64,000 nt of DNA from a virus. The DNA is taken from positions 3,781 through 67,780 of IMG/VR virus record IMGVR_UViG_3300035183_001487. One strand, 5' to 3'. Below are positions 2,007 through 56,284 of this stretch, in pieces (the first letter of the stretch is position 1; each line of letters starts with the position of its first letter). The translations under genes were made by a program, and so were the position numbers. The notes under the pieces were generated by a model, which was given only the letters and a program-made list of their open reading frames with translations, made no database searches and was not told the DNA's origin.

Positions 2007-2015
2007 GAGCAACCC

Positions 2016-4148: not shown

Positions 4149-4380
4149 ACCCTTCCTCTCCCAGGCCGCAACCATCCGCAAGCTCCGCGAGGAGCTGTTC
4201 GGCGGGCATCTGAGCCCCGAGACCTTCGCCACGATGGTGGCGCGTGGCCTGCCCTCCGAATCCGTCCCGGGCTTCAAGTTCCCGCGCTTCCGCTACTCCA
4301 AGGTCGTCGCATGGATCGAGCAGCAGGCCGGCGGCGAGAGCCGCGGCCCGGGGCGCCCCCGCCTGCGGAAGTCGGCATGA
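4135..4380 (+). CDS. Excisionase/AlpA-like DNA-binding protein
   Basis: GAAAGGAG RBS; ARGLP...PRFRYSKVVAWIE pattern; C-terminal GPGRPR. Confidence 0.55.
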   Translation: MAAPEPFLSQAATIRKLREELFGGHLSPETFATMVARGLPSESVPGFKFPRFRYSKVVAWIEQQAGGESRGPGRPRLRKSA

Positions 4381-24133: not shown

Positions 24134-27100
24134 TCACGCTGCATGGGCTTGGTTCTTCCGGGCCCGGATCTCGCGGAGGGTGCCGGCGAGCCCGGTATCG
24201 TCCAGGTACCCCTCGGTGCTCTCGAAGATCTCCCCGAGGGCGGCCTTCGTCTCGACGCGCTTCCGGTTGGTCCGCTCCCACGGGTGGTCGGCCATGAGGG
24301 TGTGGACCTCGACGTCCTGGTCCTGGCCCAGCCGGTGGATGCGGGCCGTGCGCTGCTGGTGGATCATCGCCGTCGTGGGGATGTCGTGGTGGATGAGCAC
24401 CTTCCCCCGCTGGAGGTTCAGGCCCGTCGCGCCGGCGTCGCTCAGGACGATGACGTCGGCCTCCCCGCGCTGGAACTTCCCGGCCTTGAGCCCCTTGTCC
24501 TTCGAGGAATCCTTGCCGGTGAGGCTCACCACGCCCAGGCCCGCGGCCTCGAGGTTCTTGTGGATGGCGGCCACGGCGTCCAGGTTGCGCGCGAAGATCA
24601 CGACGGGCTTCCCTTCGGCCTTGGCCTCCTTGGCGATGCGGACGTGCTCCGCCATCTTGCCGCCGGCGGGGTCCAGGTTGATGGCGCGGTTCAGGGCGGC
24701 CTCGCGGAAGGTGCCGACGCTGCGCGTGACCTCCTCGGCGATGGTGGCGTGCTCCTCCTCCGGCTTCCCGGCGAAGGCCTCCGGGGCCAGGACGTGGGCC
24801 CACGACACCCGCTCCTCCGCGCTCCCCGTCCGGAGCTTCCCGGCGGCCAGCTCGACATCGTCCACGGTCTGCCGCTGCGACGGCGACAGGGGCACCTGGT
24901 CGTGCATGTGGTGGGCGTCCACGCCGACTTCGACGCGGCCGTTGTACCAGTAGCGGGTCAGCTGCTGGGCCAGCGACCGGCGGGCCAGGGCGGCGTCCCC
25001 GCCGAAGCGCCGCATGAACTCGTCCCGGCTGTCCTCGGGGTAGCGGTGGGGGTCCAGCTTGTTCAGGTCGCTCCAGACCTCGGAGACGTCGTTCTTCAGG
25101 GGGTTGCCCGTGGCCATGACGACGTGGTCGGCGTTGTGGGAGTGGGCGTCGAGGATCCGGCTGAAGGTGGAATCCTCCTTGCCCAGCCGGTCCAGGCCCC
25201 CGTGGGCTTCGTCCACCATCAGGGCGTTGAAGTCCACGCCGGCCTTCGTGAAGGCGGCCTTGACGGCGGCGGCCAGGTCCTTGGTGTGGGCGCTGGACAC
25301 CCATTCCCGCAGCTCCTGCCCCTGCTTGCCCACGTGGTCGCCCAGGATCTTCAGCGTGTCGTCCCGCAGGGTCTGGTGGGTGACGACGACGGCGTGCCGC
25401 TCCGGGTCCCGGTAGGCGGCCATGCGCTCCTCGAACGACTCCCCGGGCTTGGCGTGGACGCGGATGCCGGTCTTGGGGTCCAGGAACCGGATGGCCTCCG
25501 CGCCGAACTGGGCCTGGACCACGGACGGCACCGCCAGGATGGCCTTCTTCAGGTTCCCATCGGCGTGCATCTCGGAGAGCGCGCCCAGCATGATCCCGGT
25601 CTTGCCGCTCCCGGGGCCGAGGAAGAGGCCCACCCGCTTGAGCTTCGTGATCGCCTTGACCGCCCGCTGCTGGTTGACGTACTTGCCGTCCATGCGCAGG
25701 CCGTCGGCCACCTTCGTGCCGCGCTTCATGCCCGCGAAGGCCTGGGAGGCCCCGGGCATGGCCTGGCGGATCTGGGCCTCCAGGGTCGCGCCGAGGGTCA
25801 GGCGCTCCCCGGCGCCCGGGGTGGGGATGGACGCCGCCTTGGGCCCCTCCGGCGCGCCCTCCTGGGGCTCCGCCGCGGGCTCCTCGAAGTCCTCCATGCC
25901 GAACAGCCCGGCCTGGGCCTGGGCCTGGGCCAGCTTGGCCTCCCGCGCCTTGGCGGCGCGCTCGAGCAGGCCCCCCTCCTCCGCCTGGTACTTCCCGGTG
26001 GCGGTGCGGGTGCGCACGGACGCCAGCTCCTTGGCCCGCTGGGCCCGGAGGGCCTCCTGCTCCTCGGGCGTGCCGGTGGCCTTGGTGAAGGCCTCGCCGT
26101 GCTGCATGCCGACCTTGCCGACGCGGAAGGCCTGCCCCGCGGCCCGGCCGTGGTGCTGGCTGAAGGCCACGGCGAAGCGCCCCCGCATGACCTCCTGGAC
26201 GGCCTCCTGGGCCTGGACCAGCCCGCCCATGCTCTGGACGTAGTCCGCCCAGGGGGTGGAGGCCTGAGCCGCCAGCTGCTCCTCCGCCGCGGCCTTCCGG
26301 GCCGCCCAGGCCTGCCAGATGGGGCTCTCGACGGGCTCCTCATCCCCGAACAGCCCGCCGCCCTCCTCGAACTTGGGCGGCTCGGGGCCGACGGCCTTCA
26401 TGGCCTCCGCGTGGGCCTCCGCGGCCGCCTTGGCGCCCCCGGGCTCCTTCTTGGCGATCTCCCGGTAGAAGAAGTCCCGCAGGCCCGCCTGGTGCTCGTG
26501 GCCCAGCTCGGCGGGCGGGATGAAGGCGGCGGCGAGGCGGGGATCCTCCGCCAGGGTGCGGTGCAGGGCCTCGTGGAAGCCCGGGGCGTCGGTGTCCGCC
26601 ATCTGGGCGTGCAGGGCGGCCTCCGGCCCCAGGCCCAGGGCCTTCAGGTGGTCCTCCGCCATCGCCTGGAACTGGGGGAGGAGGCTGTCGGCCGGGCGCA
26701 TCCGCGTCTTCGGGACGAGGTTGCCCTTCGTGTCCTTCAGCAGCTCCCCGTGCTGGTCCCGCTCCCAGACCGGCTCGCCCTTGTCATCCCTGACGACCTC
26801 CTGCAGGGGGAAGGTGTCCTGGACGGCCTGCAGAAAGGCCGGCTGGTGCTCCGGGGGGACCCGGTCCAGGGCCGTGGCGCTGAAGAGGTCCGACAGGATG
26901 TCCGTGGGCCGCTCGCCGTCGGCCACGCGCAGGGCGACGTGCTCCCGGACGCTGCCCAGGATGTCGGTGTCCGGCATGCCCGGCGTGATGGCCAGCTTCC
27001 GGCGCAGCTCCATGGGCTGCGAAATCTCGCTGTCCTGGCGCAGGACCATCCGGTTGGCGAAGCCGCGGGGGAGCCAGGCTTCCTGGTCCAGCTGGCCGCC

Positions 27101-29440
27101 CTTGATGGCCAGCGCGACCTCCCGCTCGTAGACCTCCCCGGGGTCCACGGGCTTGACGAGGCGGGCCTGGCCCTCCGCGTTGAGGTGCAGCACGGCCTCC
27201 CCGGCCTCGTGGTCGATCCGGTAGTCCCCTTCCTGCAGGCCCATGGCCGCGGCGGTCTGGACGGCGCGCTCCGGCGTCATGGCGCCCAGCGGGACGGTCA
27301 TCACGTCCTGGTCCTTGCCCCGCATGGCAGCGATGAGGGCGGCCCGGGCCTCGAGGCGGCCCAGCGCCCCGCCGAGCGTCCGGCGCGCCTCCTTCAGGGC
27401 GGCCAGCTTGTTCTTCTGCATCTCCACGGCGGTCTGCAGGTCCCGGGGCGTGGCTGCGAGGTCCGCGGCGATGCTGTTGGCCTCCTGGCGCAGGGCGGCG
27501 GCCTGGTCCATGACGGCGGGCAGGCCCTCTTGGTCCTTCAGGTGGTGCTCCTCGAGGGCCTGGAGGATGGACGCCTGGTCCTCGGGCTCGAAGTTCGCCC
27601 GGAGGCCCCGGGCCAGGACCTGCGCCGCGGCCTCGGGGCCCAGGGCCTCGATCACGTCCCGGTCCATCATCCCCTGGCCGACGGAGGCCAGGGCCACCTC
27701 GTGCAGGGCGTCGTAGGCCGCGGCCCCGCGGACGGCGTGCAGCCCGTCCATGGCCTTGGGGTCGGAGTCCGGCGCCTCGCCCTCGGGGTAGGCTTCGCCG
27801 ACCTCACGCAGCAGGCCCTGGACGTGGCCCGACAGCATCTGCTCATAGATCCCCTGCTCGACCGTCCCGCTGACGTCGTCGTCCACCAGCATCTGGAAGC
27901 CGCCTTCGAAGGTCCGGGGCTTGCCGGTGCTGGCCTTGTAGGCCTCGCGCAGGGTGGCCCGGGCCTTCAGCAGGTCCGCCAGCCCCTGGTTCGCCTTCAG
28001 GGCCTCCTTGGCGGCCTCCCGCAGGGCCCCCGCCTTCTGCGCCGCCAGCTCCTTGGACGCGACGTGCGCCTTGACCGCGGCGTCGTGGGCCGGCTTCCCG
28101 GCGCGCTCCTTGATGTCCGCCACCGCGTCGACCAGCTTCTCCGCCGACAGCCCCGCGGCCTCCGCCCGCTTCGCCAGCTCCCGGCGGTACCCCGGGCCCG
28201 CCGGGTCCGTCTCGTGCACGAGTTCCTCCACGCCCACGGGCGTGATGCCCCCGCCGATCTGGGCGAGGCCCGCGCCGGCGCGCGCCTGGGCGTCCAGCAG
28301 GACCTTGCGCTCCGCCTCCTTCACGAGCTTGTGGGCCAGGGCGAGGCGCTTCCGGTGCTCCGCCTTGGGGTCGGCCTCCGCCTGGGCCCCCGCGCCGGGG
28401 CCCGCGGCCTCCTCGCCCTCGGGCTTGGCCTGGTCCAGCAGGGCGGGGTGGTCCTCCTGGATCCCGGCGTGCTGGAAGACGTCCCGGATGAAGGACTCCT
28501 CGTTCTTCTGCTTCGCCTCCCGGGCCTGGCCCTTGGCCTGCTTGTGCGCCTCCCGCTCCTCGGGCGTCATGGCCTGCAGCTTGGCCTTCTCGTCAGCCTT
28601 GCGCTGGGCGGCCCGCTCCCGGGCCTCGGCCTGGTACTGCCCGGGCTCCTTCAGCCCGTGGAGCCGGAGGCCGTTGAGCTTGCCGCCCGCCCCGCCGACC
28701 ACCCGGTAGACGCCCTTGGTGCCCTTCACCGGCTGGACCTTGATGGGGTGGCCCTCGCTGCCCGGCCCGCCGGGGTGGACGGTGATCCACCGGGATCCGT
28801 CGGCCTCCGCCTCGGCAAACCCGGCCTTGGCCGCGGGCCGGGTGATGGGCCCGTTCCCCAGCCAGTCCTTGAAGTCGTCCATCGTGCAGTAGGAGATGGC
28901 CCGGAAGCCCTTCCACCCGGGGCTGAAGGAGTCCAGGTACCCCTGGCGGGCCTCCTCCTCCGTGTGGAAGCCGAGCATCACCTTGTGCTCATCGAAGTCC
29001 CCGGTGGCGGGGTTCACCTGGTCCACGATCCAGACGTGCGGGCTCTCGGGATCGGGGCCGATGAAGACGTCCACGCCGTCCCCGTCGGCGCCCCAGGTGC
29101 CCTTGGCGAAGCCGTAGTGGTGGGCCATCTGGGCGGCCCAGGGCCGGCCCTTGGCGTCCTTGCCCCTCCGCCAGCTGCCCCGGGGGTTCTCGACGGCGAT
29201 CTGGATGCCCTGGACGACGACGTGGCCGCGGGGGTAGGCGTTGACGGATCCGTCCGGGTTGGGCCTGGCCGGGGGCTGGGCCTTGGCGGCCTGGGCGTCC
29301 AGGTCCGGGGTGGTGAGCGGCTTGATCTTGGCCGTCAGGTCGGGCGTCCAGCCCACCACGGTCCAGCCCAGGTCCTGGCCCTGCTCATCCAGGAAGGCCG
29401 GGGCCTCGGCGGGGGGAATGGTGGGGGCGGCGTAGGTCAT
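24134..29440 (-). CDS. Large polyvalent protein: inorganic-pyrophosphatase-like domain plus SNF2/SF2 helicase (DarB-like)
   Basis: IAVENPRGS...HYG...GADGDGVDVFIG...VDQ...FDEHKVMLGF; GPGSGKT, MVDEAH, ATGNP, SDAGATGLNLQ, QRTARIHRLGQ. Confidence 0.85.
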   Translation of the reverse strand: MTYAAPTIPPAEAPAFLDEQGQDLGWTVVGWTPDLTAKIKPLTTPDLDAQAAKAQPPARPNPDGSVNAYPRGHVVVQGIQIAVENPRGSWRRGKDAKGRPWAAQMAHHYGFAKGTWGADGDGVDVFIGPDPESPHVWIVDQVNPATGDFDEHKVMLGFHTEEEARQGYLDSFSPGWKGFRAISYCTMDDFKDWLGNGPITRPAAKAGFAEAEADGSRWITVHPGGPGSEGHPIKVQPVKGTKGVYRVVGGAGGKLNGLRLHGLKEPGQYQAEARERAAQRKADEKAKLQAMTPEEREAHKQAKGQAREAKQKNEESFIRDVFQHAGIQEDHPALLDQAKPEGEEAAGPGAGAQAEADPKAEHRKRLALAHKLVKEAERKVLLDAQARAGAGLAQIGGGITPVGVEELVHETDPAGPGYRRELAKRAEAAGLSAEKLVDAVADIKERAGKPAHDAAVKAHVASKELAAQKAGALREAAKEALKANQGLADLLKARATLREAYKASTGKPRTFEGGFQMLVDDDVSGTVEQGIYEQMLSGHVQGLLREVGEAYPEGEAPDSDPKAMDGLHAVRGAAAYDALHEVALASVGQGMMDRDVIEALGPEAAAQVLARGLRANFEPEDQASILQALEEHHLKDQEGLPAVMDQAAALRQEANSIAADLAATPRDLQTAVEMQKNKLAALKEARRTLGGALGRLEARAALIAAMRGKDQDVMTVPLGAMTPERAVQTAAAMGLQEGDYRIDHEAGEAVLHLNAEGQARLVKPVDPGEVYEREVALAIKGGQLDQEAWLPRGFANRMVLRQDSEISQPMELRRKLAITPGMPDTDILGSVREHVALRVADGERPTDILSDLFSATALDRVPPEHQPAFLQAVQDTFPLQEVVRDDKGEPVWERDQHGELLKDTKGNLVPKTRMRPADSLLPQFQAMAEDHLKALGLGPEAALHAQMADTDAPGFHEALHRTLAEDPRLAAAFIPPAELGHEHQAGLRDFFYREIAKKEPGGAKAAAEAHAEAMKAVGPEPPKFEEGGGLFGDEEPVESPIWQAWAARKAAAEEQLAAQASTPWADYVQSMGGLVQAQEAVQEVMRGRFAVAFSQHHGRAAGQAFRVGKVGMQHGEAFTKATGTPEEQEALRAQRAKELASVRTRTATGKYQAEEGGLLERAAKAREAKLAQAQAQAGLFGMEDFEEPAAEPQEGAPEGPKAASIPTPGAGERLTLGATLEAQIRQAMPGASQAFAGMKRGTKVADGLRMDGKYVNQQRAVKAITKLKRVGLFLGPGSGKTGIMLGALSEMHADGNLKKAILAVPSVVQAQFGAEAIRFLDPKTGIRVHAKPGESFEERMAAYRDPERHAVVVTHQTLRDDTLKILGDHVGKQGQELREWVSSAHTKDLAAAVKAAFTKAGVDFNALMVDEAHGGLDRLGKEDSTFSRILDAHSHNADHVVMATGNPLKNDVSEVWSDLNKLDPHRYPEDSRDEFMRRFGGDAALARRSLAQQLTRYWYNGRVEVGVDAHHMHDQVPLSPSQRQTVDDVELAAGKLRTGSAEERVSWAHVLAPEAFAGKPEEEHATIAEEVTRSVGTFREAALNRAINLDPAGGKMAEHVRIAKEAKAEGKPVVIFARNLDAVAAIHKNLEAAGLGVVSLTGKDSSKDKGLKAGKFQRGEADVIVLSDAGATGLNLQRGKVLIHHDIPTTAMIHQQRTARIHRLGQDQDVEVHTLMADHPWERTNRKRVETKAALGEIFESTEGYLDDTGLAGTLREIRARKNQAHAA

Positions 29441-29574
29441 GGGGTGGGCTCGGGGTGGACTTGCGCGGCGGCGGGTGGGGTGCCACATTGGGGGTTCAGT
29501 GCTCCCGCGGGGAAGGAAATATCCAGACGGAACCGCGCGTAGGCCCGCCCGAGGGTAACCCTTTGGCGGGCCAT
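29437..29574 (-). CDS. Small hypothetical protein
   Basis: TGATG and ATGA coupling at both ends. Confidence 0.35.
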   Translation of the reverse strand: MARQRVTLGRAYARFRLDISFPAGALNPQCGTPPAAAQVHPEPTP

Positions 29575-30206
29575 CACTTTTTCTCCGCGGTATTTGGGTT
29601 CTGAATCTGGATCTCCACAGGGGCGGCCTCTCGCGTCTCTTCGGGACGATTCCCGGCCATCTCGTACCCCGTGACCACCCAGGTTGGGACCTTGTCGGTG
29701 GGGAGGCCTTCCTCTTCCCAGAAAGGGGAAAGGGTCACCTGGTGCTTGCCGGACGTCGCCCAGATCTGGGGGCCCGTGTGCCGCTTGTTGTCCTTTATCG
29801 GCGGCTCCTTCCGTGGGTCCCCGTGGACCATGCATTCAGCGATCCCATCCAGAGCGGACTGCACGTCCTGGCCCTTCGCCACGCGCTCCCGGATGATGTG
29901 CTGCAGCCGGGCGAAGGTCAGGCCGATGGGGCCCAGGCGCATGTGCATGGTCGTGAGGTAGGGCGGCTTCCCACCGCCGGCCCGGAGGGCGGCGATGGCG
30001 GCCTTGGTCTTGGTCACGCGGGTGGCCTGGGTCTGGTCGAATTCCGAGGGCTCCACCCATCGCACATGGGCGCGCACCGGGTGCAGGCCTCCGCGGCCGT
30101 CATGGCTGAAATGGGCCGAGACGGTGATCGCCCGTTTGGCGTTCGGGTTGGCTTTGAGGACGGAGCGTGCGCCTCCGGGATCGCCCGGCGCGGAGGCGCT
30201 CAGGCT
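29574..30206 (-). CDS. -1 frame extension of the upstream gene; BECR-like nuclease domain candidate
   Basis: Frame open from the GGGAAAA slippery site with no start codon before 30077; contains LKA and His tag plus LGPIGL...LQHII...G pattern. Confidence 0.55.
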   Translation of the reverse strand, partial: SLSASAPGDPGGARSVLKANPNAKRAITVSAHFSHDGRGGLHPVRAHVRWVEPSEFDQTQATRVTKTKAAIAALRAGGGKPPYLTTMHMRLGPIGLTFARLQHIIRERVAKGQDVQSALDGIAECMVHGDPRKEPPIKDNKRHTGPQIWATSGKHQVTLSPFWEEEGLPTDKVPTWVVTGYEMAGNRPEETREAAPVEIQIQNPNTAEKK

Positions 30207-30212
30207 TTTCCC
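30169..30212 (-). other. Programmed -1 ribosomal frameshift signal
   Basis: G_GGA_AAA in frame, 6-nt spacer, perfect 9-bp stem GCGCCTCCG/CGGAGGCGC. Confidence 0.7.
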
Positions 30213-31363
30213 GATGATCCCTTGGCGACGCCGCGGCCAGCCCTCGCCTGGTGGTACTCCATGGCGGCCTTGTGCGCCTCGAACGCGCGCCCGTGGGGGG
30301 CGCCCTCGTCGTCCTCGTCGGCGTGGAGGTCCATGTGGTGTTCGGCGGCGGCCTTGTGCGCTTCCGCGGCCTTCGCGTGCGCGTCTGGGCTCCCGTCCTT
30401 CTTGGCGGCCTCGGCGGCTCGGTAGGCTTCGGTGCCGAGCCGGATACCTTCCTTGTCCTTGGTCATGTGGGATTCCTGCATCGCCCCCAGGCTCCGACGG
30501 TCGTCATCCTCCTGGTTCGCATGGTCCTTTGCGGCTGGCGCCTTCGCCGGGCTCTCCCCGCCGGCCGCCGCCGTCTCGTGCATCGTCCCGTAGGCCAGGG
30601 CGCCGTGGTGGTCCGCCATGGCGTGGTGCTCCTGGGCCAGGGCCTGGTGCTCGGGAGCCTCGTCCTTGCCGCTCACCTTGGCGGCCTCGGTGTGGATGCG
30701 CGCCGCATTCCGGTGCAGGCGCTCTGCGGCGATGTGGCTCTCCATGGAGTCGGAGAGGTGGGCCCGGTTGGTGGCGGAGTGGGCGGTGGTGGTGGCGTTG
30801 TGGGCGGTGCTGAAGGGGTGGCGGTTGTTCCGGCCCGCGGCGAGGCGCCCGGATCGGGTGGTCAGGCCCTCGCTCCGGCGGTTGGCCGTGTCGTAGTCCT
30901 GGACGTGGACCAGCTTCCCGTGGACGTTGCGCGTGTGGGCGGCGACGTGGGCCTTCATGATCGGCTCCCCGGAACCCTCCCCGGCTTCGTCCTCCTCCGG
31001 CGTGGGGGGCGGCGGGGGGCCGCCGGCGTCCATGCCGCCCTCGAGGTCCTCCTCGCCCTTCAGGATGGGCCGGGGCAGGGCCTCCTCCTCCTGCCCGCCC
31101 TGGGTCGCGTCGCTGAGGTCCTTGTCCATCTGGGGGATCATCAGCGCGTGGGCGTCCCCCGCCATGGGGCCCATGACGGCCTTCAGGATGCTGTGGACGT
31201 CCTGGCTGTCGCACCCTCCCTCCAGGGCCGCCTTGCAGGCCTCGCGGAGCGCCACGCCCTCCGGCATCGTCCCGAGGTCCTTGGTCCGGTTGAAGGGGCG
31301 GCTGCGCTCGCGGAAGGCGGCCGACGCGGCGGTGTTCACGGCGGTGAGCAGGGGCTTGGTCAT
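30200..31363 (-). CDS. His/Ala-rich probable internal head protein
   Basis: ILKA, ILKG, IMKAHVAAHTRNVHGKLVHVQDYD; AEAHKAAAEHH repeats. Confidence 0.7.
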   Translation of the reverse strand: MTKPLLTAVNTAASAAFRERSRPFNRTKDLGTMPEGVALREACKAALEGGCDSQDVHSILKAVMGPMAGDAHALMIPQMDKDLSDATQGGQEEEALPRPILKGEEDLEGGMDAGGPPPPPTPEEDEAGEGSGEPIMKAHVAAHTRNVHGKLVHVQDYDTANRRSEGLTTRSGRLAAGRNNRHPFSTAHNATTTAHSATNRAHLSDSMESHIAAERLHRNAARIHTEAAKVSGKDEAPEHQALAQEHHAMADHHGALAYGTMHETAAAGGESPAKAPAAKDHANQEDDDRRSLGAMQESHMTKDKEGIRLGTEAYRAAEAAKKDGSPDAHAKAAEAHKAAAEHHMDLHADEDDEGAPHGRAFEAHKAAMEYHQARAGRGVAKGSSGKA

Positions 31364-31366
31364 GGG

Positions 31367-33553
31367 TCAGCCTTTCTTCAGGTTGGCGGCGGCGTCGCTG
31401 TGCGCCTTGGCGCTTGCGGTGTGGGCCTCGTAGGCCTTGTTGTGGCTGCTGTACTGCCTCTTGTCGCCGTAGTGCATGGCGTGGAGGTGGGCGGCCGCGG
31501 CGCTGCCGTGGTAGGCCTGGGCCTTGTTGTGGGCCTCGGCCGTTCCTGCCTTCTCGGCGTCCTTCGTCGCCTTCGCCGCTTCGGCGGACTCCTTGTGGGT
31601 GTTCATCTCCCTGTTCCCGCTCCAGTAGGAGTGGGCCCCGACGGCGGTCGCGTGCTTCAGGGCCTCCGCGGCGTGCTGGGCGCCCGCTGACTGCTTCGGC
31701 GGATCGGCCTTGGGCGCCTCCGGCGGCTTGCCGTTCTTCTTCACCGCGTCGGTGTAGTGGGTCGGGCTTCCGGTGTCGGCGTGCTTGACCGCGCCGCCGA
31801 CGGCCTCGCCGGCGGGCTTCCCACTTTCCGGGAACAGGTCCGAGTGCTTCACCTTCCCTTTGAGGCCGCTGAGGCCCCGAGCCTTGAAGTGGAGATCCTC
31901 ACCATGGCGTTTGACGTCCCACTCGTGCCCCTGTTCGTCCTTGAAATAGGACGACTCGCCGTGCTTCAGGTCCTTCAGCTTCTGCTCGTGCTCGGGGTGG
32001 ATGATGGCGCTCCCCGACATCCCGTATTCGCCGTCCCGGTACTTTCCGAACCCGACCCGCTTCCGGTATTCATTGGCGTCGATGCCGGTGGGCTCGTATC
32101 CGGTTTCGTCGGGCCCGTCCTTCTCCTTGTCCATCGCCTCCTGGCGGGCCTTGCCCTGGCGTGCCAAGAAGGCGTCTTCCGTCTCGTCGTCCTGCTTTTC
32201 CAGGTGCGGAACGCGCTTGAAGTGGTCGTCTTCGGTCTCTCCGCGCCGGCGCTCAGACCACTCCTCCACTCCTCCCGACTTCGGCGGCTCCGCGTTCTTG
32301 TTCCCTGGGGCCTGGCTGGCGGGCTTGGCCCCAACCGGGCCGATCTGCGGCGTGACGGGCTTCTTCTCGATGTCCTTCTTGGGCTTGGCCCAGCCCGCGT
32401 CGGGCCCGTACTGCGTGTGCCCCAGTTGACCCTTCTTGTGCCCTTCGATGTACTCGAATTCGTGGAACGTCCCGCCGTGAAGGTCCTTCGTGTTCCCGGT
32501 GAACTTGATCTTGTCGCCCTTGAAGTAGTGGGCCTTCTCTGGTGCTTCTGTTGGCTTGTCGTTCTTCTGGCTTGGCGGGTTCCCCCCGGCTTGGGCAGCC
32601 TCCCGGTGCTCGATCTCCTTGGCGGTGTGGGCGGCCGCGGCGTTCTCGTGGAACTTGGCGGTGGCCTCGATCTCCTCGGGGTCGTACCCCTTGGTCGCGC
32701 GGACCTCCTTGGCGGCCTCGGTGTGGGCGGAGGCCGCGGCCCCGTGGTGGCCAGCCGCGCTCGTGTGCAATTCCTGGGTCCCGTTCTTCTCCGCCGACTT
32801 CGACTTCGTGTGCGCGATGTCGGACTTCGCCGCCGCCTTCTGGCCCCACTCCGTCTGGACGTGGGTTCCTGGCGGGTTCCCGCCTGCCGACGCGCTCCCG
32901 TGGTCCTTCTGGCCCTGGGCGCCTTCGACCTCCGCGTACTTCTTCTTCGCGTAGGTGGGCCAATCGTCGGTCTCGCCTTGGGCCTTGGCGTGCTCATACG
33001 CCTTGCCCTGATGGTACGAGGCTGCGGATCCGTGTTCTTTGGCCTTGTCCCCATATGCGGTCTTACCGGCAGCCTCTTCATGAGCGTGGGCGGCCTTCCA
33101 GTGAGCGGCCTCGGCGGCCTTGTGATCCCGGTTCTCTCTTGCGTGCTCGGCGGCCTTGGACAGCTCACCAGCCGACTCGGATTCCTTCTTCCCAGCCTGC
33201 TTCTTCAGCTCCTCGTGGATGGCGAGGGCCTGGCTCGGGTCCTGGACGTGGTAGTGGTCGTAGGCGCCCGTGCGCCCGTGGTGGGTGGCCCCGGCCCTGC
33301 GGCGCTCGACCGGGATGCCCAGCTTCTGGGCCGCGGCCTTGATGTGCTCGCCGTCCTCGGCGTCGGTGGCGCGGAGGTAGTGCGTCCCGCCCTTGTGCTT
33401 GCCGATGGCCGTGCGCTCGTGGAGGGTGGCCGCCCGGCCCTGGGGCCTGGAGTCGTCATGGTCGGCGACGTGGACCACCTTCCCGTTCACCACGCGGTAG
33501 TGCGACTTCACGTGGGCCTTGAGGATTTCGCGCGGCTGGATGGCGGTGGTCAT
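31367..33553 (-). CDS. His/Ala/Lys-rich probable internal head protein
   Basis: GAGG RBS; ILKAHVKSHYRVVNGKVVHV; N-terminal domain paralogous to 54485-56284. Confidence 0.75.
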   Translation of the reverse strand: MTTAIQPREILKAHVKSHYRVVNGKVVHVADHDDSRPQGRAATLHERTAIGKHKGGTHYLRATDAEDGEHIKAAAQKLGIPVERRRAGATHHGRTGAYDHYHVQDPSQALAIHEELKKQAGKKESESAGELSKAAEHARENRDHKAAEAAHWKAAHAHEEAAGKTAYGDKAKEHGSAASYHQGKAYEHAKAQGETDDWPTYAKKKYAEVEGAQGQKDHGSASAGGNPPGTHVQTEWGQKAAAKSDIAHTKSKSAEKNGTQELHTSAAGHHGAAASAHTEAAKEVRATKGYDPEEIEATAKFHENAAAAHTAKEIEHREAAQAGGNPPSQKNDKPTEAPEKAHYFKGDKIKFTGNTKDLHGGTFHEFEYIEGHKKGQLGHTQYGPDAGWAKPKKDIEKKPVTPQIGPVGAKPASQAPGNKNAEPPKSGGVEEWSERRRGETEDDHFKRVPHLEKQDDETEDAFLARQGKARQEAMDKEKDGPDETGYEPTGIDANEYRKRVGFGKYRDGEYGMSGSAIIHPEHEQKLKDLKHGESSYFKDEQGHEWDVKRHGEDLHFKARGLSGLKGKVKHSDLFPESGKPAGEAVGGAVKHADTGSPTHYTDAVKKNGKPPEAPKADPPKQSAGAQHAAEALKHATAVGAHSYWSGNREMNTHKESAEAAKATKDAEKAGTAEAHNKAQAYHGSAAAAHLHAMHYGDKRQYSSHNKAYEAHTASAKAHSDAAANLKKG

Positions 33554-33619
33554 GGTCCTCGTCTCCCGGGCTCGCCCCAAGGGTGCCCCGCGCGGCGCTA
33601 GGCCCCGTCGAAGCCACGG

Positions 33620-33644
33620 CACTATCCCAGGGGGGTTGCCAGCC
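33620..33644 (-). promoter_or_regulatory. Putative late promoter motif
   Basis: GGCTGGCAACCCCCCTGGGATAGTG; four intergenic copies, each pointing into a gene. Confidence 0.65.
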
Positions 33645-33678
33645 AGCAACCGCCGCCCGGCGCTGGCCCGGCGACGGT

Positions 33679-34533
33679 ATGCGCATGCTCGCGGCCCTGG
33701 GCAATCTCGCCGCCATCCTCGCAAACAGCGAGGCGCTTCCCGTCCGCCTGCCCTTCGACCGTCCGGCCCTGAAGGCCTACCCCTCGATGGAGCAGGGCCA
33801 GCGGATCCTCTACATGGAGGCGTCCAACGAGATCCGGGACCTGCAGGGCGAGAAGATCTTGCTCGGCGCCCTCGAGGAGTCCATCCCGTACTTCCTGAAG
33901 TACGGCCGCATCGACTTGGACCACGCCTCCGTCGCCAAGGAGATCCGGGGCCAGCGGGTGAACCCCTACGCCTTCGAGATCGGCCGCCCGCTGGACGCCA
34001 AGGTCGCCGAGGGCTCCGTCTGGGTGAAGGCCGCCATCTTCTCCTCCAGCGACCGCTCGGGGGCGCAGAACCGCTTCACCGAGGCCGCTGACCTCTTCTG
34101 GGACAGCCTGCACACCCAGCCCCCGGTCATCTGGTACCCCTCCGTGGCCGGCGACGTCTACGACGACTACCAGACCGTCGAGGACGGGAAGCCGACGGTG
34201 GCGGTGCGGAAGATGCGCTGGCACTCCATCGGCCTCTCGCGCACCCCGGTCAACCACGGTGTGCAGCCCGTCAGCACCATGCCCCTCCGCGAGTTCGCCA
34301 AGGCCTTCAGCAGCCTCGGGGACCTCAAGGACGCCCTGCGCGCCCTGAGCCCTGACGCCTACGCCGTGGACGGCCCCATCAACCCGAAGGACCCGGACAT
34401 CGCCGCGATGCTCCAGGTCATTTCCGACACGCCGTCGGACGCAGGCATCGACTTCCTGCTCGGCCTCGCGGCCCAGCGGGGCATCCCGCCCACCCACGCC
34501 CTCGCCACCGTGCTGGCCCTTCTCTCCGCATAG
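33679..34533 (+). CDS. Prohead protease
   Basis: EASNEIRDLQGEKI...IDLDH...IGRP...VWVKA...PSVAG...LSRTPVN; precedes scaffold and capsid. Confidence 0.8.
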   Translation: MRMLAALGNLAAILANSEALPVRLPFDRPALKAYPSMEQGQRILYMEASNEIRDLQGEKILLGALEESIPYFLKYGRIDLDHASVAKEIRGQRVNPYAFEIGRPLDAKVAEGSVWVKAAIFSSSDRSGAQNRFTEAADLFWDSLHTQPPVIWYPSVAGDVYDDYQTVEDGKPTVAVRKMRWHSIGLSRTPVNHGVQPVSTMPLREFAKAFSSLGDLKDALRALSPDAYAVDGPINPKDPDIAAMLQVISDTPSDAGIDFLLGLAAQRGIPPTHALATVLALLSA

Positions 34534-50258: not shown

Positions 50259-50630
50259 CTACCCGACCCAGGGGAATTCGTCGTCCGCGGCCCGCTTGGC
50301 GGCGCCCTTGCGGGCCCGCTGGACCTGCAGCCTGTGCATCTCGCTCCAGACCCCCATGTAGGCGACGTGCCGGTCGTGCTCCTTCACGGAGGACTTGAAG
50401 TTGCCGTAGGCGATGTCCCGGGCGGCCTGCGCCAGCGCCTCGGCGACCTGCTCCAGGGGCACCAGGGCCCGGAAGCGGTAGTCCCGATCCGGCGTCATCG
50501 TGACCTCGGCTCCCGGGAAGACCCGCTCGATGTCGCCCTTGACCCGGGCCCGGACGAGCAGGTTCTTCCGCCCTGCAGCGCCGGGCGGCTTGACGATGCT
50601 GAGGAATGCGTCGCTGAGGAAGATCCACAT
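50259..50630 (-). CDS. Hypothetical phage protein
   Basis: MWIFLSDAFLSIV...LLVRAR...DY.FRA...YGNFKSSV; own promoter and RBS. Confidence 0.75.
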   Translation of the reverse strand: MWIFLSDAFLSIVKPPGAAGRKNLLVRARVKGDIERVFPGAEVTMTPDRDYRFRALVPLEQVAEALAQAARDIAYGNFKSSVKEHDRHVAYMGVWSEMHRLQVQRARKGAAKRAADDEFPWVG

Positions 50631-50698: not shown

Positions 50699-51634
50699 CT
50701 AAGATTCGTCCTCGAACAGGCCCCGGACATGGGCACCCCAGCTGCTCCACCGCTTCGGGGCCACCCGGGGGTCGGGCTCCGGGGGGGGCGGCGGCGGGGC
50801 GGGGCGGGGGCCGGCGCCCAGGGCCTCGGCCAGCCCGTGGTCCGTCGGCTGGTTCAGGACCTCATACAGCCTGGTCCTGGGGACGAGGCTGACCGCCTGG
50901 GCCTCCCACCCCATGTCGGAGGGCGTCCCCCCCACCCGGCGGGCCGTGTAGTACCGGGCCGTGGTCACCGAGCGCCGGACATCGGCAATCCACCCGGTGA
51001 TCTCGACCTGCAGGCCCGTCTCCTCGAAGGCCTCCCGGATGGCCGCCGCCTGTAGGTTGGCGCCGTGGTCATCGACGCGGCCCTTGGGGAAGGTGCCCCG
51101 GTAGCCTCCGAAGGCGTTGGTGGGGTGGATGACCCAGACCCGGCCGTCCGGCTCCTCGATGACGACGCCCGCCGCGGCCTGGTGCCCCTGCTCGACCTGC
51201 AGGGGGGGCTCGGGCAGGCCGGGATCCTGGCCGGCGACCTCCTCCCATTCCTCGTCCGTGGTGGGGTGGTCCTTCCAGGGGGTGAAGGGCACGCTGTTCA
51301 GCGTCCTGGGCACCGGGCTCCCCGGGGTCCAGGTGGCGCGCTCGTGGGGGTCCCCCCACAGGGCGGGCGGGGTGGGCTGGTGGGGGTGCTGGATCCAGAC
51401 CCGCTTCCCCTCCTCGTCGCGCTTGGGGTGGGCTTGGCCCCTCCCGGGCCCCCTGGGGGGCGCCAGCGCGCCGCCGGGCGCCTCGGCGGCGGGGCGGGGG
51501 CTGCGGCGGGGCACCCTGGCCTCCTGGGCCTGCTGGGCCCGCTGCTGGGCCTCCAGGTGGGCCTGGTGGGGGCTGACCCAGACGTTCTTCCCGTTCACGA
51601 AGCGGAAGAAGCCGCGGACGTGGATGTCGCTCAT
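50699..51634 (-). CDS. Nudix hydrolase with N-terminal His tag motif
   Basis: PKGRVD......AAAIREAFEETGL Nudix box; IHVRGFFRFVNGKNVWVSPH. Confidence 0.85.
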   Translation of the reverse strand: MSDIHVRGFFRFVNGKNVWVSPHQAHLEAQQRAQQAQEARVPRRSPRPAAEAPGGALAPPRGPGRGQAHPKRDEEGKRVWIQHPHQPTPPALWGDPHERATWTPGSPVPRTLNSVPFTPWKDHPTTDEEWEEVAGQDPGLPEPPLQVEQGHQAAAGVVIEEPDGRVWVIHPTNAFGGYRGTFPKGRVDDHGANLQAAAIREAFEETGLQVEITGWIADVRRSVTTARYYTARRVGGTPSDMGWEAQAVSLVPRTRLYEVLNQPTDHGLAEALGAGPRPAPPPPPPEPDPRVAPKRWSSWGAHVRGLFEDES

Positions 51635-52095
51635 GGCGTCACCCCGGTCAGGAACTGGACGGCCTCGAGCATGCCCTGCTTGACGATGGGGCCGGCCTCC
51701 TGGTCCGCCATCCCGCCCTCCATGGCGGTGCAGAGGGCCAGCACCTGCTTGGCGAGCCACCGGAAGTACTCCACGCCGGCGTGCTCCTCGCCGCGGACAC
51801 CAGGGATCAAGGCCCGGATCCGCCCGGCGAGGCGCGGGCCGTTCCAGGGGGCCGGCTGGTAGCTCGGGTCCTCGCCCAGGAAGATGTGGCCCATCTCGAA
51901 GCACCAGTCTTCGATGTCCTGCAGCGAGGCCTCGCGCGTGGCGGTGCCAGCCGCGAACGCATGCCGGGCCTGCATGACGCCCGTCACGAAGTTGTGCACG
52001 AGGCCCGAGACCACGGCGACCTCGCCCAGGTAGGGGCGCCCGTCCCGCTCGGGGAGTTCGATGCCGTCGCCGACGTGGATCATCGCAGCGTTCAT
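51631..52095 (-). CDS. Hypothetical protein
   Basis: ATGA coupling at both ends. Confidence 0.7.
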   Translation of the reverse strand: MNAAMIHVGDGIELPERDGRPYLGEVAVVSGLVHNFVTGVMQARHAFAAGTATREASLQDIEDWCFEMGHIFLGEDPSYQPAPWNGPRLAGRIRALIPGVRGEEHAGVEYFRWLAKQVLALCTAMEGGMADQEAGPIVKQGMLEAVQFLTGVTP

Positions 52096-54488
52096 TGTAG
52101 GGCCTCGATGTAGGTTGGGTCGGGCGGGAGGACGAGGACGCGGTACACGGGTTTCCCGCTCGAGTGCTTGCCCTTCGAGAGGAGCATGTACCGCTGCCCC
52201 GGCAGGGTGGTGATCTCCTGCTCGGAGGCGTAGCTCCCGCTGCCGGCTGTCGGGAGGCCCTTCGCGCCCTTCGCATAGACCATCTCCATGAGGCAGCCCG
52301 TCTTGTTGTGGCCGCCAAACTTGGGGCTGTCCCCCCACGAGCTGGACATGGAGGCGCAGGTCGAGCGGGGGTTTTCGAAGAGGAGCCCGATGGGAGCCTT
52401 CTCCATGAGGGGCAGCATGGTGGGCTCGAGGGCCAGCCACCGGCGCAGCATGGTCCCCTCCGGGAATTCCACGGCGTGCTTGTAGGCGAGCTTCACGATC
52501 TTGCGTTGCTCGGGCGTCAGGCCCTTGTTGCCGAAGTTCGAGGAACCGCTGACCTGCACGTGACCGAGCCAGGTTTTCAGCTCGCTCGGGATGGTGGTGT
52601 ACGCCTGGTTGACGGCGGCGCGCTCCTTCGCGGTGACGTCGTGGGTCTGCTTGGGGGTGAGGTCCAAGGTGCTTTCCACGGTGCCCAAGGTCATCCACCA
52701 GCCTAGGCGCTCATCGGCGGGGATCTGGGCCACGGTGGTCCCGGGCGGACGGTTCGGGAAGGCTTCCGACAAGGAGTCGTAGTCGGTGACGTCCTCAGCG
52801 ACCCAGGCCTTCGCCTTCTTCGCCGAGGGGTTGGCGATCACCTCCATGAAGGCGACGCAGTCGGCCCAGTAGGCCTGGACGTGCTGGCTGGGGTGCTCGT
52901 TGATCGGCTTCATGCCGAGCGATGCGCCCGTGCTCTTGTCCACCGCCTCGTACTTGTAGTCCTGGAGGGCGATGAGGTTGCCCTTCATGGCGAACTTCAG
53001 GACCGCGTTCACGTCCCGCTGGTTGGCCTGGTTGACGGCCTCGCTGCTGGAGAGGCCCTTGCCCTGCCCATTCCAGTTCAGGAAGTCCGGCGGCTTGGGC
53101 AGCTTCGACTCGTCCACGGGCAGCTTCGTGGGGTCTGGCTTCGGGGGGTTGGCGAGCAGGTCGGCCCCGGGGTAGACCTTGGCTAGGTAGGCCTTCCGGG
53201 CGACGAGCTTGGCGGCCAGATCCTGCTTCTCCTTCGCCCCGCCGGGCCCCCACTTCTCGACGGCGGCCTGGATCGCGCTGTCCGGGATCTCGAGGACCTG
53301 GGCGACGGAGGTTTCCACCTGGTCGCTGGTCATGCCCTTGAAGAGAGCGGCGGTGTTGGGGTTCGTCGCCGGGTTGTTCAGGGTGTGGATCTCGTTCACC
53401 GTGGCGCTGAAGGCCTCGCCCTTGGGACCGCCCTGGGCCCGGAAGAGGAGCGCCCCGCCGACGTCGATGCGCACCGCGCTCCCGTCCGGGTCGAGGAGGA
53501 GGTTGTCGTTGCCGAGCCCGCAGACGTCCCAGTTGGCGAGCCAGGCGTCAGCGCCGAACCCGCCCTGGGCTCCTGGGGCCTTGGGGAGCGCCTTGGCGTC
53601 CTTCTTCAGGCCCTCCTTCCAGGCCGAGGCCACGCCCACCTTGCCGCCGAGGGTGACGATGCGGAGGTTCGGGACGGCCACGCCGGCGAACTTGTAGAGC
53701 TTGGAGGCCAGGACCTCGTTCTTGGCGTGGTCCTCGGTCGGCGGGAACTTGACGTACCACTTCTTGCCCAGGGCGTCCTGGTAGAGCGCACCTTCGTTGC
53801 TACCCATCTGTCCGCCGATCTTCTTCCACCCGGCGATGCTCGTGGGCACGGGCCCCGTGGCGGCCTTGCTGGACGCCGTGGCGGGCGCCGTGGGCGGGGC
53901 CGGGGATGGGGCTTGCGAAGGCGTCCCGGCCTGGGGCGGCCCGAAGGCGCCCTTGAGGTATCCGTGCAGCGCCTCGCTGGTCTTCTTCCCGCCGGCCTGG
54001 GGCATGCCGTGCAGCCAGACCATGACGCACTTCCCCTGCGGCATCCACCGGGCCTGGATCCCCAGTTCCTTCAGGTCGCTGATGATGCCCTGGCCCTTAG
54101 CCTTATCGACCTTGATCCGAGCCGTCGGCTTGAGCCCGTACTTGCCGAAGGTGACGGGCACGTCGCCGTAGAGCAGGTTCGGCGTCTGATCGCCCTTCCA
54201 GGCCAGGATTCCCTTGTGGGGCCCTCCGCGCTCCTGGGGGGCTTGGGCGGCTTGCGGGGCCTGCAGGCCGGGCGTGGGCCCGAAGACGGCGGCGAAGTCG
54301 TCATGAAGGGTCTGGTCGTCCTCCGGCTCCGCCGCGGCGCCAGGCTCTGGCTCGGGTTCGACCTCCGGCTTCGCTCCCCCGAAGATCGCATGGAAGTCCT
54401 GGGCCACCTCGTAGTCGTGGCCGTGGACGTAGATGACCTTCCCCGAGGCCGTGGTGCGCCAGTGGTCCTTGGAGTGCTTGGTGGTCAC
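52092..54488 (-). CDS. PI3/4-kinase/HipA-like domain plus C-terminal ADP-ribosyltransferase
   Basis: GGQMGSNEG...WYVK...NEVLA..LY...DAWLANWD...DN...RIDVG; LRR...STCAS...SEQEI (R-S-ExE). Confidence 0.7.
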   Translation of the reverse strand: MTTKHSKDHWRTTASGKVIYVHGHDYEVAQDFHAIFGGAKPEVEPEPEPGAAAEPEDDQTLHDDFAAVFGPTPGLQAPQAAQAPQERGGPHKGILAWKGDQTPNLLYGDVPVTFGKYGLKPTARIKVDKAKGQGIISDLKELGIQARWMPQGKCVMVWLHGMPQAGGKKTSEALHGYLKGAFGPPQAGTPSQAPSPAPPTAPATASSKAATGPVPTSIAGWKKIGGQMGSNEGALYQDALGKKWYVKFPPTEDHAKNEVLASKLYKFAGVAVPNLRIVTLGGKVGVASAWKEGLKKDAKALPKAPGAQGGFGADAWLANWDVCGLGNDNLLLDPDGSAVRIDVGGALLFRAQGGPKGEAFSATVNEIHTLNNPATNPNTAALFKGMTSDQVETSVAQVLEIPDSAIQAAVEKWGPGGAKEKQDLAAKLVARKAYLAKVYPGADLLANPPKPDPTKLPVDESKLPKPPDFLNWNGQGKGLSSSEAVNQANQRDVNAVLKFAMKGNLIALQDYKYEAVDKSTGASLGMKPINEHPSQHVQAYWADCVAFMEVIANPSAKKAKAWVAEDVTDYDSLSEAFPNRPPGTTVAQIPADERLGWWMTLGTVESTLDLTPKQTHDVTAKERAAVNQAYTTIPSELKTWLGHVQVSGSSNFGNKGLTPEQRKIVKLAYKHAVEFPEGTMLRRWLALEPTMLPLMEKAPIGLLFENPRSTCASMSSSWGDSPKFGGHNKTGCLMEMVYAKGAKGLPTAGSGSYASEQEITTLPGQRYMLLSKGKHSSGKPVYRVLVLPPDPTYIEALQ

Positions 54489-56284
54489 GGCTTGCCCTTG
54501 GCGGCGATGGCGGCGTCGAGCGCGTGGGCGCGGCCGGCCCAGATCGCGGCGACATCACCCATGCCCTTCGCGTGCGTGTAGAGCGCCGCCTTCTTGCAGA
54601 CCGTCGCTGCCTTCTTCAGGTCGGCGTCGGCCACCATCCCCAGCCCAGCACCGCCAGCATTGATCATGTGGGCGATGGTCCCGCCGTGGGTGACACCGAC
54701 CCCCGTGGCCTCCTTCATCAGCTCGCCCCAGTTGAGGCTTGCCCACTTCGGGTTGGCCTTGGGCGCCGCCGCGGCTTCGGCCTCCTTCTTCTCGCTGATG
54801 GAATCGAGGGCCTTGGCGCTGGCCAGCGCGTTGATCTTCCACTTGTTGATGGTCCCAGTCCACGATGCCGCTTCTTCGGCATCGCCCTGCGCATACCACC
54901 CATCCTGGATCGAGGTCGCAAGGTCCACCATCTTCTCGGCGGTCTTGTTCATCTCGTAGAGTTCGGATTCGGTCTTGGTGGCGGCCAGCTCGGGCGACGT
55001 AGGCCAGAACCCGAGCCACCCGTTGGAAGCAACATCGTTGTTCCAGGCCGTCCACTCGCTCAGTTTGGCGGCAAGGGCAGGGTCCTTTTTCGTGCTCACG
55101 ATGGAGTCGTCCTGCGCACCGCCCAGTAGTTGGTTCGCCAGCTGGTAGTGCGCATGTGCAAGGGCTTGATGGAACGGCTGGAGTTCTTTCGCCGCCGGGG
55201 GGTAGGCCTCAATCGGGGCCACGCCGCCCAGCGAGGAGTGCGCGACGCTCGCCTTGGCATGGAGCTTCGCGGCCTCCGCGGTCCCCTCGGGGGTCCCCTT
55301 CATCTGGTACCCGTAGGCGTTGAGGCTGATGTTGGTCGCCGCGGCCGCCGGGCCTTCGTCACCCGCCTTCTTCGCCAAGAGGACGGCTAGGCCAGCGGCC
55401 TTGGCGGCCTTGTCGTTCTGGTCGGTGGCTTTGGCCAGGAGATCCTTCGCGGTGGCGACGTGGATCATGTCCACATCGGGTTCCTTGGCTGGCGTGCCGT
55501 GCGTCTGTTCCAGCCAGTGGATCGGGGCGTTGTCGTGCTTGACGTACCCCTTGCCCGCCTTCGACGCAGCGAGCTTCCCGGCGAACGCCTGGGCCTCCTG
55601 GAAGGTCGCGTCCTTGACCTTGGCCTCCTGGATCTGCGGCTTCCCCGTCTTCCCGTAGGCCGTCAGCACGCTGAACTTCCCGTTCGGCTGCTTGTGGATC
55701 TCGATGGTGTAGGTCTTGTCATGGCCTGGGAGGGTATTGCGCAGCTGCCAGACCTGCTGGACCGTCAGGTTGTTGGGCGTCCACGTCCCGCCCAGCGGGT
55801 TCGGCGCTGGTTCCGGCGCGTGGGCTGGTGCCGGCGCGGCAGGCGGCTCGGGTTTCGGCGGGGGCGGGGCAGCAGCCTTCGGCGCCGCGGCGCCCGGGCC
55901 GCCCTCGAGGTGGGCGTGGACCTTGGCGGCGTCCTCGGTGCTGGCGAAGTGCAGGTGGTCGTAGGCCCCGGTTCGGCCATGGTGGTTCGCGCCGGCGCGG
56001 CGGGCCTTCGTGACCTTCACGCCCAGGCTGTCGGCCACCTGCTTGATGGCCTTGGCGTCGTGGGCGTCGGTGGCCCGGATGTAGGCCCCCTCCTTGGCGT
56101 GCACGCCCAGGGCCGACCGCTGGTGGAGGGACGCCTCGGGGTGTTCGCCGTGGACCTTGTTGTCGTACTCGTGGATGTAGACGACCTTGCCGCCCTGGAC
56201 CCGGTAGTGGGACTTGACGTGGGCCTTGAGCAGAAGCCGCCCCAGGATGGCTCGGATTTCCATGCGCGCTCCGGTAGGCCTCAT
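54485..56284 (-). CDS. WGR-domain probable virion internal protein
   Basis: HDKTYTIEI...VLTAYGKTG...EA......ASKAGKGY; N-terminus paralogous to 31367-33553. Confidence 0.7.
   Translation of the reverse strand: MRPTGARMEIRAILGRLLLKAHVKSHYRVQGGKVVYIHEYDNKVHGEHPEASLHQRSALGVHAKEGAYIRATDAHDAKAIKQVADSLGVKVTKARRAGANHHGRTGAYDHLHFASTEDAAKVHAHLEGGPGAAAPKAAAPPPPKPEPPAAPAPAHAPEPAPNPLGGTWTPNNLTVQQVWQLRNTLPGHDKTYTIEIHKQPNGKFSVLTAYGKTGKPQIQEAKVKDATFQEAQAFAGKLAASKAGKGYVKHDNAPIHWLEQTHGTPAKEPDVDMIHVATAKDLLAKATDQNDKAAKAAGLAVLLAKKAGDEGPAAAATNISLNAYGYQMKGTPEGTAEAAKLHAKASVAHSSLGGVAPIEAYPPAAKELQPFHQALAHAHYQLANQLLGGAQDDSIVSTKKDPALAAKLSEWTAWNNDVASNGWLGFWPTSPELAATKTESELYEMNKTAEKMVDLATSIQDGWYAQGDAEEAASWTGTINKWKINALASAKALDSISEKKEAEAAAAPKANPKWASLNWGELMKEATGVGVTHGGTIAHMINAGGAGLGMVADADLKKAATVCKKAALYTHAKGMGDVAAIWAGRAHALDAAIAAKGKP

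Follow-up and report, generated by a model that had tools for sequence, protein, structure and literature searches.

A conserved phage cassette of kinase, predicted ADP-ribosyltransferase and Nudix genes with a common His-rich tag

Why would a temperate phage keep a kinase, a predicted ADP-ribosyltransferase (ART), and a Nudix hydrolase side by side among its tail genes? The question is raised by a 64,000-nucleotide stretch of viral DNA (the window; positions 3,781 to 67,780 of IMG/VR record IMGVR_UViG_3300035183_001487), in which a run of minus-strand genes encodes a WGR-domain protein, a 798-aa protein joining a kinase domain to a predicted ART domain, a 154-aa protein (p154), and a Nudix hydrolase. 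An earlier note on the DNA had named this run a packaged ADP-ribosylation toolkit, a name that the kinase half of the 798-aa protein makes too narrow. Our analysis indicates that the cassette is genuine and widespread and that its genes are linked in function. We read it as a mobile, virion-loaded effector cassette of a temperate myovirus, in which enzymes that share a His-rich tag would be injected and the untagged p154 would stay behind as the partner of the ART domain; in our judgment the chances that this reading is right are about even.

The four genes are translationally coupled, as the note had claimed, with a 4-base overlap at all three junctions in the sequence (GTGA at 54485–54488, ATGA at 52092–52095, and ATGA at 51631–51634). 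Two boundaries needed revision. The WGR gene had been started near 56284 and begins instead at the ATG at 56263, and the four-gene extent proposed for the cassette holds for those four genes but leaves out a conserved fifth one, which follows the Nudix gene after a 68-base gap. The genes, with the evidence behind each, are as follows.

54485–56263, minus strand: gene of the WGR protein (592 aa), which is tagged at its N-terminus and has a WGR domain and an Ala-rich C-terminal half (Pfam; database record P0234).
52092–54488, minus strand: gene of the 798-aa protein, consisting of tag, linker, kinase, middle region, and ART (alignment, AlphaFold model).
51631–52095, minus strand: gene of the untagged 154-aa protein, p154 (family search, position, co-variation with the ART domain).
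50699–51634, minus strand: gene of the 311-aa tagged Nudix hydrolase, with a conserved N-terminal region and a Nudix fold at about residues 151–253 (Pfam).
50259–50630, minus strand: fifth cassette gene, about 123 aa, untagged (tblastn; start fixed by homologues).

The same neighborhood recurs in other phages. In IMG/VR, 509 relatives of the kinase-ART region were found by a pattern scan and confirmed, and 76 distinct loci were kept; with Pseudomonas phage Dolphis and Aeromonas phage ST4 these make up the 78 loci used throughout. Relatives are carried by 20 of 50,697 phage records. By tblastn, the kinase is found at all 78 loci, the Nudix gene at 64, and the fifth gene, a homologue of Dolphis gp120 and ST4_106, downstream of the Nudix gene at 65, while a hidden Markov model (HMM) places p154 at 64 loci, where it invariably begins as the large gene ends and precedes the Nudix gene. 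Kinase, p154, Nudix, and fifth gene occur together and in the same order at 57/78 loci, and at every one of these (57/57) p154 directly precedes the Nudix gene. When the window is set against Dolphis and ST4, the cassette genes are all that the neighborhoods have in common and the flanks differ, and the cassette therefore moves as a unit.

The check on neighborhood conservation also showed that the genes are often fused. The WGR domain is in the same frame as the kinase at 25/78 loci and in 26/120 listed database relatives, and Pfam confirms it in 11 of the 28 large proteins that were scanned. Nudix-kinase fusions are found at several loci, and the Pseudomonas protein P0083 carries ART, NUDIX, and kinase in one chain. 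In 6 of the same 28 large proteins a MuF head domain precedes the kinase, and those loci have neither p154 nor Nudix. The Nudix gene is missing from 14 loci. Pfam scans of six of these place the kinase downstream of MuF in 6/6 (L067, L069, L071, L073, L075, and L078), and several others of the 14 are cut by contig ends. Precomputed Pfam assignments for the 120 listed relatives comprise Phage_Mu_F (30), WGR (24), ADPrib_exo_Tox (19), NUDIX (13), and ART (8).

The 798-aa protein is not recognized by Pfam, PHROGs, or NCBIfam, and a single-sequence search of the Protein Data Bank (PDB) gave a low-complexity match only. An AlphaFold model of residues 205–798, built from an alignment of 62 relatives (mean pLDDT 89.7, pTM 0.80), recovers both the kinase and the ART folds that the note had named, and divides the protein into three parts downstream of its tag and linker.

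53136–53849, minus strand: PI3/4-kinase/CtkA/HipA-like kinase domain, residues 214–451 (fold match, invariant columns).
52674–53135, minus strand: conserved middle region, residues 452–605 (tblastn, model).
52101–52673, minus strand: predicted C3/VIP2/Alt-type ADP-ribosyltransferase domain, residues 606–796 (profile, fold, ExE motif).

The C-terminal part matches C3lim (3bw8; Z 14.1, root-mean-square deviation (rmsd) 3.1, 172 residues aligned) and VIP2 (1qs2; Z 13.2), as well as iota-type ARTs, with the set as a whole at Z 13–14 and a Foldseek E of 3.5e-7. The family profile finds VIP2 in the PDB with an E of 1.9e-8, or 9e-5 in the run in which the R, S-T-S, and ExE positions are aligned. In that comparison R683 is aligned to the Arg of the VIP2 YRW motif, and E756-Q-E758 in the ARTT loop is aligned to the VIP2 ExE; both glutamates are invariant in 36/36 sequences. 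The domain is a predicted ADP-ribosyltransferase of the R-S-E clade (cholera-toxin/C3/VIP2/Alt), and the ExE motif suggests arginine as the target residue. Two features weigh against a simple assignment. Among the 36 relatives the Arg column is R or K, with Lys in several, and the S-T-S position reads C711-A712-S713, of which the Cys and the final Ser are nearly invariant. Activity or substrate may therefore differ from those of the classic ARTs. The R-S-ExE label of the note stands for the fold, for R683, and for E756-x-E758; at the S-T-S position, which reads C-A-S, the first Ser is not kept.

The kinase half matches Helicobacter pylori CtkA (3akk; Z 15.9, rmsd 3.8, 219 aligned by VIA-align; Foldseek E 5e-6) and human PI4KII-alpha (4hnd; Z 12.0, 206 aligned by VIA-align). 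K247, E258, D314, N319, D321, N329, and D342 are invariant in 53/53 sequences, including the copies fused to MuF or Nudix, and by eye the motif order parallels that of E. coli HipA (K181, D309, N314, and D332). The model places the domain with the bilobal kinases of the HipA/PI3-PI4-kinase-like superfamily. The tie to HipA itself is weak by sequence, which counts against that part of the assignment: Pfam HipA_C matches 34/53 kinase members, all below the cut-off (best E 1.4e-5), the score of the window domain is 15.1 bits, with the gathering cut-off at 30.5, hhalign against E. coli HipA alone gives a probability of 2.3%, and HipA is absent among the 50 fold matches listed. The kinase profile, searched against PDB sequences, finds at best LepB (E 0.59). 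Given the sub-threshold HipA_C scores and the low hhalign probability, we label the domain a CtkA/PI4K/HipA-like kinase rather than a member of the HipA family; in this form, the earlier PI3/4-kinase/HipA-like call holds on the two fold matches and the sub-threshold HipA_C scores. The middle region is confidently modeled and conserved at 62/78 loci (tblastn), and none of the 50 fold matches listed covers it (they span residues 10–247 and 402–592 of the model), although one domain can fill such a list. The kinase domain also turns up in Gordonia phages (113–122 kb) and in one Actinomycetia phage, at 33–37% identity, and so crosses the Gram divide. Ten loci (L029, L041–L043, L053, L061–L063, L065, and L074) have two kinase copies, one in the ART protein and another fused C-terminally to the tagged Nudix protein.

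What, then, is the untagged gene doing between these enzymes? By exhaustive search, the p154 family comprises 108 representative clusters, almost all consisting of free-standing proteins of 106–220 residues. The alignment of 78 sequences has no invariant column and a mean column identity of 21%, which makes an enzymatic role unlikely; by this measure p154 is the fastest-evolving part of the cassette, followed by the fifth gene (37%), ART (41%), Nudix (42%), and kinase (54%). PHROGs has no match for p154, a word-indexed protein search returned the query itself only, and the ESM Atlas holds nothing above a TM score of 0.42 (by query length).

Co-variation ties p154 to the ART domain. From the 78 loci, those without any one of the five parts were dropped, leaving 56, and removal of duplicates left 51; the ART was represented by the last 190 residues of the protein upstream of p154, and pairwise distances were compared by partial Mantel tests with 999 permutations. 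The p154 distances follow those of the ART C-terminus with a partial r of 0.50 after control for kinase, Nudix, and fifth protein (0/999 permutations as high). The corresponding values are 0.21 for the kinase (0/999), 0.05 for Nudix (138/999), and 0.05 for the fifth protein (153/999). ART distances are themselves uncorrelated with those of Nudix (−0.01) and of the fifth protein (0.00), and from this we conclude that the ART domain and p154 swap together, as toxin-immunity cassettes do. Adjacency might account for part of the ART-p154 signal, which tells against a cognate pairing, yet the equally adjacent Nudix gene shows none of it. On this sequence evidence p154 is likely the cognate partner of the ART domain, as an immunity protein or a chaperone, which strengthens the suggestion in the note of an inhibitor or chaperone. 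Small downstream ORFs of MuF toxin genes are described as putative immunity genes in PMC5576092.

Such a pairing invites another account, in which the prophage would use the kinase-ART protein together with p154 as a toxin-immunity or abortive-infection module that is expressed in the lysogen, excludes other phages or competitors, and plays no role in the phage's own infection. The small, fast-evolving gene directly downstream of a toxin-type domain, co-varying with it, is what this account would predict, ART toxin/immunity pairs are among the Foldseek matches (6drh and 8za7), and the record is that of a provirus encoding integrase, CI-type repressor, and antirepressor. The genes nevertheless overlap inside a late structural operon, and a promoter-like site of their own was not found there; the cassette is kept in plaque-isolated phages such as Dolphis and ST4; among the PADLOC defense models none fits the ART, p154, or Nudix proteins; and the tag and the Nudix and WGR partners are left unexplained. 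We regard a lysogen-protecting module as very unlikely to be the right explanation.

The Nudix call of the note is borne out by a Pfam NUDIX match of 48.7 bits (cut-off 21.1) and by a Nudix box (REx2EE) whose E201, E204, E205, and G207 are invariant in 51/51 sequences. The protein is 54% identical to Dolphis gp119 and has a conserved region of about 90 residues N-terminal of the Nudix fold; NCBIfam matches are all far below their cut-offs. The nearest solved relatives by family profile are the Aquifex Ap4A hydrolase (3i7u; E 2.5e-12) and Thermus Ndx1, and the profile as a whole is closest to Ap4A/Ap6A hydrolases. ADP-ribose pyrophosphatases (ADPRases) are marked by a Pro about 16 residues after the Nudix box, and a Pro at that spacing is absent from the sequence. 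Assignment to the ADPRase subfamily was considered and rejected, the profile lying nearest the Ap4A hydrolases, which weakens the ADP-ribose-processing role that had been proposed. The fifth protein family shows columns of D, Y, R, N, K, and W that are invariant, and it has no match in Pfam, NCBIfam, PHROGs, or PADLOC, nor a significant profile match among PDB sequences.

The WGR domain, too, is upheld, at 28 bits against a Pfam cut-off of 22 (PF05406; 31.4 bits in another scan).

55529–55726, minus strand: WGR domain, about residues 180–245, with the triad Y-G-K (Pfam, clade model, conserved columns).

The triad that gives the domain its name reads Y-G-K in the window and throughout the clade. 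PADLOC returns WGR_XIII at the level of the domain only (1.4e-5), PHROGs has no match for the protein, the ESM Atlas has no usable match for its Ala-rich C-terminal half, and a word-indexed protein search finds three proteins only. That the WGR protein might be the split-off N-terminal half of the large Dolphis/ST4 protein was considered and rejected, as the two show no similarity. A sensor role for the WGR domain is conjecture. In the parts of PMC8120803 available to us, WGR is linked solely to PARPs, where it binds nucleic-acid ends.

Taken together, the WGR and Nudix domains bear on a reading in which the cassette would act on nucleic acids or their caps. The ends of DNA or RNA would be the ligand of WGR, the ART would either modify a nucleic-acid end or attach NAD-capped RNA, and Nudix would decap NAD- or Np4N-RNA; attachment of NAD-capped RNA, or RNAylation, is an activity of T4 ModB. 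In keeping with this, WGR is repeatedly fused to the ART protein, the Nudix family has Ap4A/Ap6A hydrolases as its nearest relatives, and ModB-named proteins are among the fold matches. Against it, an ExE motif on a C3/VIP2 fold is typical of protein-arginine ARTs (PMC8120803), and 53/78 loci have no WGR at all. We consider a nucleic-acid target improbable.

What kind of phage carries the cassette? The IMG/VR provirus record is 67,780 bases long, an estimated 74% complete, and about 70% G+C; it encodes terminase, portal, major capsid protein, baseplate proteins, and tail sheath. Record bases 1–3900, to the left of the window (L081), hold a tyrosine integrase, a CI-type repressor with HTH and S24 peptidase domains, and a Bro-N/KilAC antirepressor, and a tRNA search of the same bases found none. 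With these genes next to the window and structural genes that include a tail sheath, the phage is a temperate myovirus. The nearest isolates, judged by the capsid protein (30–35% identity), are myoviruses of about 86–95 kb infecting Bordetella, Pseudomonas, Aeromonas, Morganella, Yersinia, and Escherichia. The cassette is placed between tail-fibre/baseplate genes and a divergent sheath gene: downstream of the fifth gene, on the same strand, come baseplate-like and tail-fibre genes, and upstream the cassette diverges from the sheath operon. A promoter and terminator scan was uninformative: it gave 0 promoter-like sites, and terminator-like sites were as frequent as in shuffled sequence; within the cassette it gave no minus-strand terminator-like site. 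The cassette is probably transcribed with the late tail genes.

The tag is a His-rich motif of about 29 residues that the note had seen on three cassette proteins and had described as absent from the 154-aa one. That distribution is borne out.

56162–56236, minus strand: His-rich tag of the WGR protein, residues 10–34 (motif model).
54414–54479, minus strand: His-rich tag of the 798-aa protein, residues 4–25 (motif model).
51566–51625, minus strand: His-rich tag of the Nudix protein, residues 4–23 (motif model).

In the window the tag is also present at the N-terminus of a 785-aa protein (31367–33724, minus strand) and within a 387-aa protein (30200–31363, minus strand); p154 and the fifth protein do not carry it. 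A model iterated from the five window copies (E up to 0.01) finds 108 copies, which lie at 65/78 loci plus the window (5 copies), and the motif is accordingly not a chance resemblance. Most copies are at the N-termini of Nudix proteins, and others are at the N-termini of large proteins and of downstream orphans. Among 20 tagged proteins scanned with Pfam, 18 have no family and 2 are DUF6900. Large relatives (e.g., Dolphis gp117, L002 5715–9383) have a second conserved motif, short and hairpin-like, which precedes the kinase, recurs near their N-termini, and may be a diverged tag (G-D-T-K ... N-G-R-W-x-K).

The case for packaging rests on the late-operon position, the common tag, and the MuF and portal fusions of other phages. 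Among the BFVD fold matches are proteins that bear the names portal, head morphogenesis, minor capsid, Nudix hydrolase, PI3/4-kinase, Alt (T4-type), and ModB, and the same kinase and ART domains come in either a tagged or a MuF-fused architecture. It is mainly for this last reason that we infer the tag to be a loading signal. A neighboring 1784-aa protein of polyvalent type is a further link to the virion. By analogy with such fusions, virion delivery of the tagged proteins is plausible. ARTs and Nudix proteins are argued from context, in PMC9503650, to be often packaged in myovirus heads, and PMC5512222 describes polyvalent proteins that include ART and a different kinase group.

The absence, by Pfam, of MuF (PF04233) from the four window proteins weighs against virion loading. 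Other observations do so as well and also speak for enzymes that are never packaged, acting instead in the producing cell on host or phage proteins and nucleotides, late or after induction, with the tag as a metal-binding, oligomerization, or regulatory element. Our literature searches, outside supplements, found no virion proteomics for the relatives Dolphis, ST4, Morganella phage Mecenats66, PHB04, and fHe-Yen8-01, and the term "mass spectrometry" is absent from the Mecenats66 paper. In Dolphis and ST4 the cassette adjoins a restriction-endonuclease-like gene and regulators and lies away from structural genes. The tag of the 387-aa protein is internal, at about residue 135, and metal binding would fit the conserved His and Asp positions of the tag; the tag could also serve oligomerization or as a processing site. 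On the other side, the same kinase and ART domains sit on MuF and portal head proteins in other phages, the window cassette is within a late tail operon, the tagged proteins are of unrelated folds with the tag alone in common, and p154, the one clearly non-enzymatic partner, is untagged. Action confined to the producing cell is, in our view, unlikely.

Under the virion-loading reading, the tag would load the WGR protein, the kinase-ART fusion, and the Nudix protein into the particle, in place of a covalent MuF or portal fusion, and the tagged proteins would enter the next host together with the DNA. There the kinase domain would phosphorylate and the ART domain ADP-ribosylate host targets, and the Nudix protein would cleave a dinucleotide-type molecule such as ApnA, an NAD or Np4N RNA cap, or a signal derived from ADP-ribose. 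p154 would remain in the producing cell as the cognate neutralizer of the ART domain or as its folding or packaging chaperone. In a more specific and rather doubtful version, the tag would be an undescribed portable loading signal in a large clade of ∼90-kb myoviruses that marks the ejected proteome (five proteins here), with a cargo that includes a WGR-gated dual writer, a kinase together with an arginine ART, silenced in the producing cell by p154.

Other parts of the window also deserve mention. The 785-aa and 387-aa tagged proteins have no family match and are encoded between the portal and capsid genes, beside a 1784-aa protein (24134–29488, minus strand) with InPase (Pfam 2.6e-48) and SNF2/DEAD helicase domains, which is untagged and of polyvalent type; PHROGs also matches it to DarB-like antirestriction and minor head protein families. 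DNA methyltransferase genes lie in the early region at 4244–5809 and 10452–11879, both on the plus strand, the second fused to a ParB-like domain.

Injected phage proteins are prime candidates for host takeover and for beating immediate defenses, since they are active before phage gene expression. The cassette defines a large uncharacterized family in which kinase, ART, and Nudix are joined through gene order and fusion, and its short common tag offers a handle on how particle cargo is chosen; if the tag works as proposed, it would be a loading signal usable for putting foreign proteins into phage particles. The pairing of WGR with an R-S-E ART is unreported in the surveys PMC9503650 and PMC5512222, where WGR has 0 occurrences, and in our literature searches on WGR or HipA-like domains with phage ARTs, which did not find the architecture.

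How does the cassette compare with known systems? T4 Alt is an R-S-E ADP-ribosyltransferase that is packaged in the virion and injected. The window ART resembles it as a phage ART of the cholera-toxin/VIP2 clade with an ExE motif, with Alt names among the BFVD matches and, as proposed here, delivery with the DNA. It differs in being fused to a kinase (in many relatives also to WGR), in having a small partner gene and a Nudix neighbor, and in its other N-terminal motif and the Cys in place of the first Ser of S-T-S; its packaging, moreover, is inferred. C3 exoenzymes and VIP2/iota-type ARTs have the same fold (rmsd ∼3 over ∼170 residues) at 12–19% identity, but the window family has C-x-S for S-T-S and, in some relatives, Lys for Arg, and belongs to a phage rather than to a secreted toxin. 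CtkA, HipA, and type II PI4-kinases share the kinase fold and motif order, and HipA_C is the only Pfam family that matches many members; unlike HipA, the window kinase has neither the HipA N-terminal domain nor a HipB-like partner, and its family is fused to ART, Nudix, or MuF. PARPs likewise join WGR to an ADP-ribosyltransferase, but theirs is of the H-Y-E, diphtheria-toxin clade (PMC8120803), whereas here an R-S-E ART and a kinase accompany a WGR domain with the triad Y-G-K.

A further parallel is with MuF toxins and polyvalent proteins (PMC5576092 and PMC5512222), which are multidomain ART and kinase effectors of temperate phages with a small downstream ORF; MuF itself is on 30/120 listed relatives of the window kinase. 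The window effectors are without MuF and are split among several tagged genes, and the kinases of PMC5512222 are a group of protein kinases without a C-lobe from (pro)phages of Verrucomicrobia, Chlamydia, and Bacteroidetes, whereas the window kinase is CtkA/PI4K-like. The cassette is a variant of this virion-effector and polyvalent-protein theme, and its novelties are the common tag and the small partner specific to the ART domain.

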